A DNA stretch of 64,000 bases from Escherichia phage dhabil (MN850621.1), one strand, 5' to 3'; numbered from the stretch's first letter, positions 44,124-50,424 are shown. A program made the numbers and translations. Notes: generated from the letters alone by a model not told the origin.

Positions 44124-45629
44124 ATGTCAGACAATCCATTATACGGGCATGATGGTAGAGGCCACTTTAGAGGCGTATCATTAGTAGAAGTTCCACAGAA
44201 CAAATCATTGGAATTTGTGGACATACTCACTAGTGAAAGCACCTTAGACCCTACTATGCTAGATTCTTCTCAAAGCTATGGACTTGAATTTATAAAACAA
44301 GCTTCTAGGGAAGGCGCGTTGGCCCATTTAGGTATAACTAATGAGATGCTAACACCTGGTACTGAAGGTCCACAAGGCCCTAAAGGAGACCCAGGGCCGC
44401 AAGGTATTCAAGGTAACCCCGGTCCTAAAGGAGAAAAGGGCGAACCAGGACCAGTAGGTCCAGAAGGTCCTAAAGGAGACCCGGGTTCACCAGGAAAAGA
44501 AGGCCCTCAGGGTTTACAAGGGGCCCAAGGAGAAGTAGGACCGCAAGGACCACAAGGTCCTATAGGCCCGGCAGGTTTGGTGTGGAAGGGAGCCTGGGAT
44601 GAATCTACCCAATACTCTAAAGACGATGCAGTTGGATACCAGGGAGCTTCTTATTTTTGCATCAGTTCTAATACAGGAACAATACCTCCTAGCGAAGGAG
44701 TTTGGGCACTATTGGCTAATATCGGTGCACCAGGTCCTCAAGGACCAACAGGCCCAACCGGCCCTCAAGGTCCACAAGGCGCGCCAGGCCAAGATGGTAA
44801 TGGGTTTATCTGGGCCGGAAACTGGGCCCTTGGTTCGTCTTATTATATAAACGATTTGGTCCAGTGCGAAGGGTCTTCTTGGATTTGTATCCAGGATAAT
44901 ATAGCAAATAATGATAGTTATCCTGGGAGTGGAGACCTGTGGGCCGATTATTGGAATTTATTTGTAAAAGAAGGGCGTCCAGGAAATCCCGGAGAAGATG
45001 GTGCACCTGGAGAGCAAGGTGCCCAAGGACCGCAAGGCGACCCAGGTCCTAAAGGTGAAAAGGGTGAACCCGGGCCACAAGGTATTCAAGGTCCTATAGG
45101 TCCTGCAGGTGCGCCAGGCAAAGATGCAGTATTTGATGTCGATTCTTTAACCCAGTCTCAATTAAAATCTTTATATGATAAACTTTTCCCATTCTATCCA
45201 CCTAGATATTGGAAAGGCTCTTTAAGATTTGATAAGCCTCTGAACACTTCAGAGTGGAAGGAAATACGTTTGTGGGACCTTAATATGGTTCTTCATGTTC
45301 GCATGTACTCATCTGTAGGCATCCATATAAGGGCTACTAATGCAGGTCTTACTAATAGGCTTGATATTAAAAGATTTACCAACTATGAAAACGGAATAGA
45401 ATGTGCCAACTGGAGTAATGTGTTGTGGTCATCATCTCCTGAATTATTCGACGATTTGGCTTATTCTAGTGCAAGACAATTTAACCGTTACGAAATATTT
45501 GACCGTGATACTAGAAAATACTACACTGTATCTGTGTTTATTGTAGGCGGCCCTCTTAATACGACTACAGATATCCCTGTTGAAGTTTTATTTTCTGTCG
45601 AAGACCATACCAATATGAGCACGTTTTAA
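44124..45629 (+). CDS. collagen-like triple-helix repeat protein with two carbohydrate-binding-like (CBM5/12-type) inserts and a C-terminal globular domain (501 aa)
   Basis: Three Gly-X-Y runs (aa about 81-152, 203-229, 286-336) separated by two W....Y..(D)D.V.Y.G.SY.C...N.G..P....W motifs; RBS AGGAGA. Confidence 0.75.
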
Positions 45630-45638
45630 GGAGGTTAA

Positions 45639-46505
45639 ATGATTGTACTTAAAATAAATGGTCCTAGATATGAATTGGTTGGCAGGACAGTAACCTTTTA
45701 TACCGGGTTTGTATTACCACCCGGTTCTACTCTAGATGACGTAGAAATTAATTGGTATAAAAACGATGTCCATATTCCACAACTTCCTACCGAAGACCCT
45801 TTTGAATTAAATTTATGGGAAGTAGGATTCCCGGCGGCAGGAACATTTTATGCGACCATAACAAATAAGAAAAGTGGTGAAATAACAAAGAGTAACGAAA
45901 TAGAACTTGAAATAGGTACCCTTCCAAGAAGAATAGTCCTAGATATAAACTCTAGGGAATTAATATATGCCAATATAGGAGAAACAGTTTCACTTCGCCC
46001 GTCGTGTAGAGTGGAACCCACTTATGCCGAAAGAATTTGTAGATGGTATAGAGATGGAGTAGAATTATCTAAAGACGAAGATATTGATATATTAATAGAC
46101 GACCCTGATAAATTTGGAGATTATACATTAAAATCTATAGCGACCTGCGAAGGAGCATATATCCCTGCTTCTGAAGAACTTTTAGTTGAAATAAAACCTA
46201 GGGATGATGTATTGCAGTGCCCTTTCATATATGATAACGACCTTAATGCTTATTTACCATATGGCGGTGGAAGAAATGAATCGTATATGTGGATAGGTTG
46301 GTGGGTATGGGACGAAATAAGAGAAGCCGTTAGATTGGGAGAAGATTGGACTTTGGATATAAACAACAGCCCATACAAGTATAAATGTGAGTTACAAAAA
46401 GTAGCCGACCTTTTGTCTAAGTATCCTGAAGTAGAGATACAAGAGTCGAGAAATGGCTACATCTTAGAAAGGAAAGACTTAGTTTACGTCCCTCCTGAAA
46501 AATAA
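45639..46505 (+). CDS. Hoc-like capsid decoration protein paralog (288 aa)
   Basis: C-terminal about 90 aa (YMWIGWWVWDEI...EDW...LQKVADL...YPEVEIQESRNG) parallels the Hoc C-terminus at 46779-47066; RBS AGGAGG. Confidence 0.7.
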   Translation: MIVLKINGPRYELVGRTVTFYTGFVLPPGSTLDDVEINWYKNDVHIPQLPTEDPFELNLWEVGFPAAGTFYATITNKKSGEITKSNEIELEIGTLPRRIVLDINSRELIYANIGETVSLRPSCRVEPTYAERICRWYRDGVELSKDEDIDILIDDPDKFGDYTLKSIATCEGAYIPASEELLVEIKPRDDVLQCPFIYDNDLNAYLPYGGGRNESYMWIGWWVWDEIREAVRLGEDWTLDINNSPYKYKCELQKVADLLSKYPEVEIQESRNGYILERKDLVYVPPEK

Positions 46506-46507
46506 TA

Positions 46508-46529
46508 AAGGGCCTACGGGCCCTTTTTG
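46508..46529 (+). terminator. intrinsic terminator GGGCC-TAC-GGGCCC + T5
   Basis: AAAGGGCCTACGGGCCCTTTTTGG directly after the Hoc-like gene. Confidence 0.6.
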
Positions 46530-46693
46530 GTATGTAAAATTTTATCTATAGTAGCTATTATCCCAAAAAAGGAACTAATGCATGTGAAAAGAGCCAATAT
46601 AGAAGCAAACAACCCACTAGTTAATGAAATTAACGAAAACAAAAACAGCACTATAAAGAAAACCAACAACCCTATATCTTTGTTAAATTTCAT
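46514..46693 (-). CDS. small hydrophobic membrane protein (59 aa)
   Basis: Hand-translated: MKFNKDIGLLVFFIVLFLFSLISLTSGLFASILALFTCISSFFGIIATIDKILHTKKGP; RBS AGGTGG 4 nt before ATG. Confidence 0.4.
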   Translation of the reverse strand: MKFNKDIGLLVFFIVLFLFSLISLTSGLFASILALFTCISSFFGIIATIDKILHTKKGP

Positions 46694-46754
46694 ATATCCA
46701 CCTATTAAAAATTATTCGTCAATAACTTAATCTCCCGAAACATTATCATAAACT

Positions 46755-46780
46755 AAATAAGGGCCTTGCGGCCCTTTATT
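46755..46780 (-). terminator. hairpin GGGCC-TTGC-GGCCC flanked by T-rich tracts (possibly bidirectional)
   Basis: AAATAAGGGCCTTGCGGCCCTTTATT directly 3' of hoc. Confidence 0.45.
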
Positions 46781-48191
46781 AATAAACGTAATCGTAAATA
46801 ATTCCAGCATCCAAAGCGGTTCTGTGAATAATTCTACCATTACGAGATTCCTGTACATCAACCTCAGGATAATCGGCTACCATTTTTTGAAGGGTATAAC
46901 GATGGAGATAATATTCACTATCAGGTTCGTCAGTTTTCCAGTCTTTGCCTTCAAGGGTCATTTTCTGAATTTCGTCCATAACCCACCAACCACACCAAAT
47001 ATAAGCTGAATTACGAACTGGTAGCGGATGAACGTAAGGTAGTTCGCCCTCTGGTTCAGGAGCGACTTTAGCCGTAATTGTTACATTACCGGATTTTGTG
47101 ACGGTCACAGAATTATAGTCGGTAGCCGAAACCACAACAGAAACTTCAATAACCTGTGAACCTTCAGCGCTTGTGTCAATTACTAATGTATCCGTAGCAC
47201 CCACAACAGGTGAACCATCTTTCTTCCAAGAATAAGCAAAAGTAGCACCACTAGGCGCACCGACTACCGTGGCTTTAAAAGAAGCCGGGATTCCTTCAGA
47301 GACAGTAATAGAAGCAGGCGTTAAATTAACAGAAACACCTGCCATAGTCTTTTTAGTAATTGTTACACTTCCTGTTTTGGTAACGGTTAAATCATTATAA
47401 TCCGTACCTTTTAGGAGTACCGAAACTTCAATAGAGTAAGAACCTATTGTAGACGTATCAACAGCAAGAGTATTACTGCTTTCGCCCGGAATAATAGAAC
47501 CGTTTTTCTTCCAAGAATAAGTTGCATTTACGCCGGAAGGAGCGCCGACTACATCCGCTTTAAACTGTGCAGATGAGTCTTTCTCTGTACTAATTGAGGC
47601 CGGTGTTAAAGTAACAGAAACACCTGATATAGTTTTCTTAACAAAAGTTACCGCAGCACCTTTAGTAGCGGTACCCGGGTTATATTCAGGGGCGGTAACA
47701 GTAACTTCACAGTTCAACGTGTAATTTGCTTCCGCGGCTTCGGTTACAGTAATAGTTTTACCAGTTTGGCCAGAGATTACGCTGGTGTTACGTTTCCAAA
47801 CATAAGCAATTGTTGCACCTGCAGGTGCACCCGTCACGTTAGCAGTAACAACTTGAGATTGGCCAACTTCTTTAGAAACAGAAATAGGGTCCAAAGCCAA
47901 AGAAATAGACATGGTCTTATTAGCTACGGTAACTTCAAAAGTATCTTCAGCTACCTCAGGTTCGCCTTCAGCCGGAGTAGAAGTTGCTACTACTTTTAAA
48001 ACTTTCTTACCTACAGGTGCAGCACCTGTATATTTCAAAACATTGGTTGCTTCTGGATTAGAAGCACCATCAATAGACCATACATATGTAATGGTTCCTT
48101 CTACAGCTGCACCTGTTGCGGTAGCAGTGTAGTTAGCACTTTCGCCTATTTTAATAGACGCTGTGCCGGCTATACTTACAGTAAAAGCCAT
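46779..48191 (-). CDS. hoc: Hoc outer capsid protein with four Ig-like repeats plus C-terminal capsid-binding domain (470 aa)
   Basis: Four about 95-aa Ig-like repeats each containing Y-x-W-K/S-x-(D/N)G; position next to inh as in T4. Confidence 0.85.
   Translation of the reverse strand: MAFTVSIAGTASIKIGESANYTATATGAAVEGTITYVWSIDGASNPEATNVLKYTGAAPVGKKVLKVVATSTPAEGEPEVAEDTFEVTVANKTMSISLALDPISVSKEVGQSQVVTANVTGAPAGATIAYVWKRNTSVISGQTGKTITVTEAAEANYTLNCEVTVTAPEYNPGTATKGAAVTFVKKTISGVSVTLTPASISTEKDSSAQFKADVVGAPSGVNATYSWKKNGSIIPGESSNTLAVDTSTIGSYSIEVSVLLKGTDYNDLTVTKTGSVTITKKTMAGVSVNLTPASITVSEGIPASFKATVVGAPSGATFAYSWKKDGSPVVGATDTLVIDTSAEGSQVIEVSVVVSATDYNSVTVTKSGNVTITAKVAPEPEGELPYVHPLPVRNSAYIWCGWWVMDEIQKMTLEGKDWKTDEPDSEYYLHRYTLQKMVADYPEVDVQESRNGRIIHRTALDAGIIYDYVY
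47067..47621 (-). repeat. internal tandem duplication of Ig-like domains 3 and 4 within hoc
   Basis: ATYSWKKNGSIIPGESSNTLAVDTSTIGSYSIEVSV... versus FAYSWKKDGSPVVGATDTLVIDTSAEGSQVIEVSV... are closely similar. Confidence 0.6.
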
Positions 48192-48200
48192 ATTTTACCC

Positions 48201-48872
48201 TTATTTTAAAGTTACGAAAGATGAATTACGCGTTTCACGTACTAATACTGAACCATTACGATTGATGTAATAAATCAGACTGAATAGTGTTTGGTGGGCA
48301 GATGGGTGTTGGAAATCTTTAGGGCGTTCTTTCCAATCAGGGGTTTCGGTAATCCATTGATAAATCCACCAAGGCACAGTACAATACCCTGGGTTTTTAC
48401 CAATGAGTAAAAGATTAGGGCTAAAGTTTTCAGGTAAAGAGAATACAGGTTTTTCAGATTCAATAACCTCGGCCACAGCCTCTTTGAATTTCTCTTCGAC
48501 AAACGGGACGTCTTCTTCAATAATCTCTACCTTAGGAAGTTCGGCTACCTCAATAACTTCAACTACCGCTTCAGGGGCATCAAATAATAGGGTAGCCTCT
48601 TCTTTGGCGGGTTCGGCACCATCAACAAATTCGTTAGCGCCTGTGAGTTCGTCGGCGGCATCAATCAAATCAGAAATAGACAAACCTTCGGTTTCTGGAA
48701 GTGGTTCATCAGCCAGGGCTTTAAGGCCTTCAGAGATATCGATAATCAAATTATCAAACGAACGGGTTTTCTTAAGTTTCAAACCGAATTGTTCGCCGTA
48801 TTCGATTAACTTAGCTTTAGCTTCTTTTTTATCTTCGAGTGCACGAAGCTCTTCAATATATTGAGTATCCAT
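48201..48872 (-). CDS. inh: Inh, inhibitor of prohead protease
   Basis: 223 aa (T4 Inh is similar), acidic N-terminal half; position between hoc and uvsW. Confidence 0.7.
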   Translation of the reverse strand: MDTQYIEELRALEDKKEAKAKLIEYGEQFGLKLKKTRSFDNLIIDISEGLKALADEPLPETEGLSISDLIDAADELTGANEFVDGAEPAKEEATLLFDAPEAVVEVIEVAELPKVEIIEEDVPFVEEKFKEAVAEVIESEKPVFSLPENFSPNLLLIGKNPGYCTVPWWIYQWITETPDWKERPKDFQHPSAHQTLFSLIYYINRNGSVLVRETRNSSFVTLK

Positions 48873-48892
48873 AATTAGTCTCTTGTTGGTGT

Positions 48893-48913
48893 ATAAATAT
48901 AATTATATTTATA
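48893..48913. promoter_or_regulatory. divergent pair of late promoters (TATAAATA on plus 48893-48900; TATAAATA on minus 48906-48913)
   Basis: Plus copy 27 nt upstream of uvsW; minus copy upstream of inh and hoc. Confidence 0.55.
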
Positions 48914-48927
48914 ACTGAGAATTAGAC

Positions 48928-50424
48928 ATGCAAATTCAAGTACATTTTGATAATTTTAGTCATGTTCGTGTTGAGTGTGATGAATCCACCTTCTACGAAC
49001 TCAGAGACTATTTCAGCTTTGAAGCTGATGGATATAAATTTAACCCTAAATACCGTTACGGGCAATGGGACGGGAGAATTCGTCTTCTAGATTATAACCG
49101 TAAACTTCCGTATGGTCTAGTCCCACAAATTAAAAAATTCGCTGACCAGTTTGAATACTCTCTTTGGATAGACCCACGTATTCTTGAACAGGAAGATATT
49201 TCTCGCGAAGATTTTGACTCATGGGTGGCTTCACAAGAGATTTATTCAGGTTCTACCAAGATTGAGCCACATTGGTACCAGAATGAAGCCGTATACAACG
49301 GTCTGACAAAACGTCGTGCAATTCTGAATTTACCTACATCCGCAGGTAAATCATTGATTCAGGCGCTCCTGAGTCGATATTACGTTGAGAACTATGAAGG
49401 TAAAATTCTTATCTTAGTTCCTACTACTGCACTTGTCGACCAGATGATTAATGACTTCATCGATTATCGTTTGTTCCCTAAAGCCGCTATGCTTGGTATT
49501 CGTTCAGGTACTGCTCGTGATTCTGATGCAATGATTTATGTTTCAACTTATCAAACGGCTATTAAACAACCTAAAGAATGGTTTGCTCAGTTTGGTATGT
49601 TTATGAATGACGAATGCCATTTGGCAACAGGTAAATCAATTTCTACCATCATCGAAGGCCTTACCAATTGTATGTTTAAATTCGGTTTGTCCGGTTCTTT
49701 AAAAGACGGTAAAGCCAATTTAATGCAATATATGGGTTTGTTTGGTGATGTGTTTAAGCCAGTATCCACTTCACAGTTAATGGAAGAAGGACAGGTAACT
49801 GATTTAAAAATAAACAGTATTTTCCTTCGTTATCCGGATGAATTCACTGTTAAGATGAAAGGTAAAGATTACCAATCAGAAATTAAAGTCATTACTAAGG
49901 CTACTCGTCGTAATAAATGGGTTGCTAATTTAGCTGTTAAACTCGCTAAGAAAGAAGAGAACGTATTCCTGATGTTTAAAAACATCGAGCACGGTAAAAC
50001 TCTTTTTGAAATGGTTAAAGAGCAACATAAAGAAGTTTATTACGTATCAGGTGAAGTTAATACAGAAACTCGTAATGCTCTTAAAGTAATGGCGGAAAAT
50101 GGTAAGGGTATTATTGTTGTGGCAAGTTATGGTGTGTTCTCTACTGGTATTTCCGTTAAGAACCTCCACCATGTAATATTTGCACATCCGGTAAAATCCA
50201 AAATCATTGTACTCCAGACAATAGGTCGTGTGCTCCGTAAACATGCTTCTAAATCAACAGCACAAGTTTGGGACATTATAGACGACATGGGCGTTAAGCC
50301 TAAATCAGCAAATGCTAAAAAGAAATATGTTCATTTGAATTATGCATTAAAACATGCCTTAGAACGTATTCAACGTTATGCTGACGAGAAATTTAATTAC
50401 GTAATGAAACAGGTGGATTTATGA
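48928..50424 (+). CDS. uvsW: UvsW RNA-DNA / DNA helicase
   Basis: HFDNFSHVRVECDESTF.ELRD.FSFEADGY.FNP..RYG.WDGRIRLLDYNR, NLPTSAGKS (Walker A), MNDECH (Walker B) match recalled T4 UvsW. Confidence 0.95.
   Translation: MQIQVHFDNFSHVRVECDESTFYELRDYFSFEADGYKFNPKYRYGQWDGRIRLLDYNRKLPYGLVPQIKKFADQFEYSLWIDPRILEQEDISREDFDSWVASQEIYSGSTKIEPHWYQNEAVYNGLTKRRAILNLPTSAGKSLIQALLSRYYVENYEGKILILVPTTALVDQMINDFIDYRLFPKAAMLGIRSGTARDSDAMIYVSTYQTAIKQPKEWFAQFGMFMNDECHLATGKSISTIIEGLTNCMFKFGLSGSLKDGKANLMQYMGLFGDVFKPVSTSQLMEEGQVTDLKINSIFLRYPDEFTVKMKGKDYQSEIKVITKATRRNKWVANLAVKLAKKEENVFLMFKNIEHGKTLFEMVKEQHKEVYYVSGEVNTETRNALKVMAENGKGIIVVASYGVFSTGISVKNLHHVIFAHPVKSKIIVLQTIGRVLRKHASKSTAQVWDIIDDMGVKPKSANAKKKYVHLNYALKHALERIQRYADEKFNYVMKQVDL

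Follow-up and report, generated by a model that had tools for sequence, protein, structure and literature searches.

Domain architecture and module history of a four-Ig Hoc from an Escherichia Dhakavirus

Hoc, the highly immunogenic outer capsid protein of T4-like phages, is a head decoration protein that is dispensable for growth. Fokine et al. 2023 describe Hoc as a conserved capsid-binding domain with a variable string of Ig-like domains (PMC10385173). T4 Hoc (5vf3, 8t1x) has three of these domains in 376 aa (PMC10385173), the Hoc of PNJ-9 has two and binds MUC2 (Fu et al. 2024; PMC11853027), and Klebsiella phage PMBT63 encodes a 468-aa Hoc with four, mucin retention having been shown experimentally for the phage (Ewertz et al. 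2026; PMC13435897). At the far end lies Serratia phage Muldoon, with a Hoc of 1174 aa and ten Ig-like domains, the highest number described; Muldoon and PG7 are also examples of phages with two Hoc-like proteins (PMC10385173). Adhesion to mucin glycans or cell surfaces through the Ig-like domains of Hoc has been published for T4, PNJ-6, PNJ-9 and PMBT63 (PMC10385173, PMC11853027, PMC13435897). Variable Ig number, modular or mosaic hoc genes, four-Ig Hocs and two-Hoc phages are all, then, already in the literature. The paper reporting the genome of phage dhaeg does not discuss hoc (PMC7552041), and our literature search found no paper naming JS10, JS98 and hoc together.

We analyzed a stretch of 64,000 nucleotides (the window) from Escherichia phage dhabil (MN850621.1). 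Its positions 46000-49000 are 100% identical to dhaeg (MN850609.1; Straboviridae, Tevenvirinae, Dhakavirus), and the labels "dhaeg Hoc" and "hoc2" below denote genes of the present window by way of that identical record. The hoc gene found here is very probably a normal, annotated Dhakavirus hoc that encodes a four-Ig protein of the type A-B-C'-C, in which the split between the third and fourth Ig-like domains (D3 and D4) is old and the number of modules varies among relatives by recombination. This Hoc is an ordinary and already known one, an annotated member of a well-described family with a common architecture, and has little importance beyond annotation. Its domain-level history, with three module types, independent B- and C-type duplications and module-exact indels, is a tidy illustration rather than a new principle.

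The hoc gene and its surroundings

The gene lies on the minus strand at 46779..48191, an open reading frame of 470 aa with an ATG start (dhaeg_79, QHR70623.1) whose boundaries coincide exactly with those of the original prediction. Its naming as hoc holds as well: GenBank annotates the product as "head outer capsid protein", and the protein matches the Hoc-like head decoration family phrog_1149 (E 2e-123) and, in the PDB, T4 Hoc (5vf3_Z, E 1.9e-115). An NCBIfam scan returned no model matching Hoc or hoc2. The genes run gp24, rnlB, hoc, inh, uvsW as in T4, with gp24 and rnlB upstream and inh-hoc between rnlB and uvsW in both phages. A Hoc gene of a Tevenvirinae phage is expected to follow inh and to lie between gp24/rnlB and uvsW, as this one does. 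The prohead protease inhibitor gene inh (48201..48872, minus), identified by annotation and phrog_1051 (E 5e-91), ends 9 nt before hoc, and an intact uvsW (48928-50424, plus) diverges from the pair.

A motif search located a T4-type late promoter motif, TATAAATA, at 48906..48913 (minus), 34 nt upstream of the inh ATG, which by analogy with the established T4 late promoters would be functional. Directly after the hoc stop codon, a consensus scan found a terminator-like hairpin by pattern match only (AAGGGCCGCAAGGCCCTT at 46759..46776, minus; GC-rich, then a T-rich tail). With these promoter and terminator motifs on its flanks, inh-hoc appears to form a late transcription unit like that of T4, and the two genes are probably co-transcribed.

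Several minor features of this neighbourhood deserve mention. A second TATAAATA motif at 48892-48899 (plus) forms a back-to-back pair with the first in the 55-nt inh/uvsW intergenic region, one per gene. Homing-endonuclease genes interrupt or follow uvsW, next to inh-hoc, in some relatives: the uvsW region of Bp7 (L004 5604-7886) contains a split uvsW and an HNH endonuclease, UP19 has a homing endonuclease after uvsW (L006 6376-7071), and in T4 segE sits between inh and uvsW. The C-terminal part of Inh (residues ~156-216) weakly matches phrog_1149 (E 1.2e-4) over the equivalent of the Hoc capsid-binding domain, including a WW motif and an RNG-like motif, and pairwise BLASTP of Hoc against Inh gives E 0.2; resting on one PHROG match, the neighbours inh and hoc may be distant homologs.

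Ig-like domains and the capsid-binding domain

The protein consists of four repeats of ~91-95 aa each (residues 1-91, 92-186, 187-281 and 282-376), followed by a C-terminal domain of 94 aa; all are encoded on the minus strand. D1 (type A, 47919..48191, aa 1-91) aligns to residues 1-107 of T4 Hoc, and D2 (type B, 47634..47918, aa 92-186) scores 151 bits with a domain HMM that we built from D2-D4 of Hoc. D3 (47349..47633, aa 187-281) is a diverged C-type module, designated C', and is extra relative to UP19 and IME08. D4 (type C, 47064..47348, aa 282-376) is the ortholog of the last Ig domain of other Hocs. The linker and C-terminal capsid-binding domain occupy 46782..47063 (aa 377-470).

The domain HMM counts four Ig-like domains in dhaeg and JS10, three in T4 (376 aa), IME08 and UP19, two in Bp7, and five in the homologs P0006 and P0010. 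An AlphaFold2 model of Hoc (33-sequence alignment input, mean pLDDT 90) resolves four all-beta blocks with strands spanning 4-90 (D1), 97-184, 192-279 and 287-373, after which come a linker of lower confidence and, at 386-461, an alpha/beta domain. Structural neighbours of the model in Foldseek include Dscam Ig1-4, cadherin ectodomains, RB49 Hoc (3shs) and NCAM Ig1-3. Pfam alone clearly detects D3 and D4 only: I-set reaches 30.5 bits, over its cut-off, with Ig_3 and Ig_2 under theirs, and the I-set and Ig_3 matches fall at residues 288-374 (D4). By AlphaFold2, Foldseek, Pfam I-set and the HMM, the N-terminal part is the linear string of Ig-like beta-sandwich domains that characterizes Hoc. The prediction of four Ig-like domains ahead of the capsid-binding domain is thereby borne out by the HMM, even though Pfam alone is clear for two, and by the four AlphaFold2 blocks; the three stated for T4 Hoc agree with both our HMM count and the literature (PMC10385173).

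The C-terminal domain is about 86-87% identical to that of T4 Hoc (5vf3, 8t1x; PMC10385173), with a Foldseek match to 8t1x_X at TM 0.71 and 87% identity, and it matches phrog_21694 (E 1e-40). The aromatic cluster YIWCGWWVMDEIQKMT of the T4-type capsid-binding domain (T4 residues ~281-376) is present with an identical motif, and phmmer aligns residues 208-468 of dhaeg Hoc to residues 115-375 of T4 Hoc. Both proteins are linear strings of Ig-like domains with the same N-terminal domain type (45% identical), and their last Ig domains are 55-58% identical, but dhaeg Hoc has four Ig-like domains in 470 aa against three in 376 aa. Scored with the type-specific HMMs, the T4 middle domain gives 31.6, 35.1 and 37.5 bits and is too diverged for B or C typing, so D3 is called the extra domain on comparison with UP19 and IME08, not with T4.

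Homology to T4 Hoc predicts that the alpha/beta domain binds at the centre of major-capsid-protein hexamers, and the level of binding-domain identity to T4 suggests one Hoc monomer per gp23 hexamer centre on the mature capsid. From there the A-B-C'-C string would extend away from the capsid, forming a monomeric fibre that exceeds the T4 fibre by one domain. With four Ig-like domains against three, the fibre should accordingly exceed T4's in length, as had been proposed; per-domain extrapolation from the 180 Å of T4 suggests roughly 22 nm. By analogy with the published systems, the protein is likely to adhere reversibly to mucin glycans or cell surfaces and to serve in virion dispersal. Fibre length and Ig content probably affect how therapeutic or gut phages stick to mucus, and a four-Ig A-B-C'-C Hoc accompanied by a second paralog is a useful descriptive detail for phage therapy and phage display.

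The same architecture recurs among relatives. JS10 (ACL78404, 469 aa), IME341 (472 aa) and CLB_P2 are A-B-C'-C as in dhaeg, with D3 95-97% identical, and JS10 Hoc is 90% identical to dhaeg Hoc overall. The Hoc-like protein of PMBT63 (468 aa, hit P0045; PMC13435897) likewise has four Ig-like domains and a capsid-binding domain and is 68% identical. By length and HMM count, 89 of the best 120 homologs have four domains, 27 have three and four have five, a distribution biased by the four-domain query. Muldoon obeys the same principle of a variable Ig string on a conserved anchor with a far longer array, and Muldoon and PG7 each carry a second, shorter Hoc paralog in the same genome, as dhaeg does with hoc2; we draw these two likenesses from published descriptions.

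Age of the split between D3 and D4

Repeats 3 and 4 had been singled out as much more alike than the others and attributed to a recent internal duplication that lengthened the fibre. The similarity itself is clear. In pairwise global alignments with shuffled-sequence z scores, D3 and D4 share 59.6% aa identity (z = 31.8), against 20-39% for the other domain pairs (37-39% for D2/D3 and D2/D4, about 24-29% for pairs with D1); BLASTP of Hoc against itself returned the identity match only. Type-specific HMMs applied to D3 give 125 bits for C and 71 bits for B, making it C-type. D3 and D4 are adjacent paralogs of one domain type.

A recent duplication is not supported. The codon alignment of D3 and D4 has 63% nucleotide identity (48% at third positions), with dN 0.37 and a dS of about 1.17 that is near saturation and gives a lower bound on age only. 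For scale, dhaeg D4 and the last Ig domain of T4 differ by dN 0.39 and dS 1.3, and D3 differs from the D3 of JS10 or IME341 by a dS of 0.09-0.12. Comparison with hoc of related phages points the same way, since D4 shares 84-90% identity with the last Ig domain in Bp7, IME08, UP19 and P0099, two- and three-Ig Hocs among them, and only 60% with D3. The two copies are not each other's closest relatives and their synonymous divergence is not low, as would be the case after a recent tandem duplication.

We built a neighbor-joining tree (Kimura distances, 200 bootstraps, 95 columns) of all non-N-terminal domains. It contains a type-B clade that includes D2 (bootstrap 100) and a type-C group. D3 of dhaeg, JS10, P0002 and P0005 forms its own long-stemmed clade (bootstrap 98), and dhaeg D4 groups with the terminal Ig domains of two- and three-Ig Hocs (bootstrap 87). 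D3 is 57-65% identical to Dhakavirus C-type domains and 62-65% identical to the C domains of Klebsiella-phage-type Hocs. A tblastn search with D3 over 50,697 phage records gave 15 records at 90-100% identity, which represent about a dozen Dhakaviruses; the next best match is at 65%, and no intermediates fall between 90% and 65%.

That a single Ig domain was recently duplicated in tandem in this phage's own lineage, yielding D3, D4 and a longer fibre, therefore strikes us as highly improbable: the pair is the most similar in the protein, adjacent and of one type, but the nucleotide and synonymous divergence, the closer orthologs of D4 in other phages and the missing intermediates all contradict it. 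So does the 90-97% conservation of D3 across roughly a dozen phages, in which D1 falls as low as 48% (IME341). Recency could be rescued if D3 evolved more than tenfold faster than D4 at synonymous sites, but no module is better conserved than D3 among dhaeg, JS10 and IME341, which makes this implausible. On these sequence comparisons, D3 (C') and the last Ig domain (C) are paralogs that split long ago, and their separation appears at least as deep as the divergence between Dhakavirus and Klebsiella-phage-type C domains. Deep branches of the domain tree have bootstraps of 29-47, so D3 could instead be a fast-evolving Dhakavirus C copy rather than a truly older split. In three Klebsiella-phage-type Hocs of our set (P0017, P0021 and P0069; 468-470 aa, 68-70% identical; PMBT63 is outside this set), domains 3 and 4 form two clades that pair weakly with each other (bootstrap 42) and not with dhaeg D3, which suggests an independent C-type duplication.

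Module turnover and a second Hoc-family gene

Among close relatives, Bp7 (282 aa) has two Ig modules, UP19 (375 aa) and IME08 (377 aa) have three, and dhaeg, JS10 and IME341 have four. More distant homologs add the architectures A-B-B-C (P0023), A-B-B-C-C (P0006 and P0010) and A-B-C-C (Klebsiella-phage type). When Dhakavirus Hocs are aligned, the gap in UP19 and IME08 is exactly the 95 aa of D3, that in Bp7 is D2 and D3 (190 aa), and the indel junctions fall in a repeated inter-domain segment, KKT-x-x-GVSV-x-L-x-P. The modules that these phages do carry are orthologous to those of dhaeg: D2, where carried, is 85-96% identical and the last Ig domain 84-88%. In other non-T4 Hocs that have three to five Ig domains, the second domain shares 72-96% identity with dhaeg D2. 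D1 is less uniform. It is 77-98% identical in UP19 and IME08 (98% in UP19), 48% in IME341, and in Bp7 it is an alternative type, 47% identical to dhaeg D1, like that of IME341.

Nucleotide comparison in 60-nt windows reveals where the ancestry changes. Against UP19, identity is 86-100% (mostly 93-100%) over inh, D1 and D2, D3 is absent, and identity drops to mostly 83-91% over D4 and the C-terminal domain. Against IME341, it is 50-63% in D1 and mostly 93-100% from D3 to the end. These profiles show dhaeg hoc to be a mosaic that resembles UP19 and JS10 in the 5' half and IME341 in the 3' half, which includes D3. JS10 differs in turn at the C-terminal domain, with a dS of 1.25 from dhaeg.

The varying Ig number of these relatives is explained by gain, loss and exchange of whole 95-aa modules through homologous or unequal recombination, and the best reading of the sequences is a Hoc assembled from three Ig module types that were repeatedly duplicated, deleted and exchanged at conserved borders. 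Exchange would take place at the conserved junction KKT-x-x-GVSV-x-L-x-P. We infer unequal crossing-over at this junction as the mechanism, but exact matches there are short: only 15 nt where D3 and D4 begin, and 17 nt at most anywhere between these two modules.

How D3 came to be in dhaeg can be read in more than one way. In one account it arrived ready-made: recombination at the inter-domain junction brought in a C-type module from a Hoc lineage outside those sampled. Its equal closeness to Klebsiella-phage-type and Dhakavirus C domains, its long isolated stem in the domain tree, the demonstrable mosaicism of hoc with breakpoints at domain borders, and the presence or absence of the module among near-identical 5' halves (dhaeg and UP19) all fit. 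However, no donor lineage turned up among the 905 phage records that match the module, an early duplication in place with later losses also accounts for these data, and the resolution of the tree is too weak to decide; we regard an import as somewhat unlikely.

Alternatively, four Ig-like domains could be the ancestral Dhakavirus state, with the three-Ig genes of UP19 and IME08 and the two-Ig gene of Bp7 as deletion derivatives and no addition in dhaeg. What these genes lack corresponds precisely to whole modules, the junctions lie within the repeated KKT..GVSV segment, D3 is old, and UP19 matches dhaeg closely up to the junction. Against this, a genome phylogeny is needed to polarize the direction of change, and the 83-91% identity of UP19 3' of the junction points to recombinational replacement rather than simple deletion. 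Ancestral four-Ig genes are thus a real possibility that we nonetheless rate a little short of even.

A second Hoc-family gene, hoc2 (dhaeg_80; 45639..46505, plus; 288 aa), is convergent with hoc and matches phrog_1149 at E 6e-43. The only region common to both proteins is the C-terminal 71 aa of hoc2, which match the capsid-binding domain of Hoc at 46% identity (E 6e-18). A single-sequence AlphaFold2 model of hoc2 has a pLDDT of 40.8, too low for domain counting. Of the 50,697 phage records, those of dhaeg, CLB_P2, Ec2-ASingh, IME08 and JS10 are the only ones with a full-length relative at more than 60% identity, which makes hoc2, as a side observation, rarer than a four-Ig Hoc. Hoc and hoc2 would presumably compete for the same hexamer-centre sites. 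More speculatively, and in our judgment unlikely, the junction KKT-x-x-GVSV-x-L-x-P with its 15-17-nt exact runs might act as the boundary of a recombination cassette, by which co-infecting Dhakaviruses could quickly swap Ig number and type (2, 3 or 4); in the few hoc2 carriers, two different fibres with the same anchor might then compete for hexamer sites and give a mixed, tunable decoration.

The 273-nt gap between hoc2 and hoc has a terminator-like hairpin at each border and contains two overlapping reading frames. One, at 46514-46693 (minus), is an unannotated 59-aa ORF that has two hydrophobic segments and the Shine-Dalgarno sequence AGGTGG; the other, at 46527-46730 (plus), is a 67-aa ORF with a TTG start that is annotated as hypothetical in CLB_P2. 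Both are intact in CLB_P2 and IME341, and each is a candidate coding frame. On the other side, 9 nt upstream of hoc2, 44124-45629 (plus) encodes a protein of 501 aa that combines four stretches of collagen triple helix with two carbohydrate-binding modules (CBM_5_12) and is annotated as "hypothetical" in dhaeg and "tail fiber-like" in JS10 and lies at a different locus in IME08.
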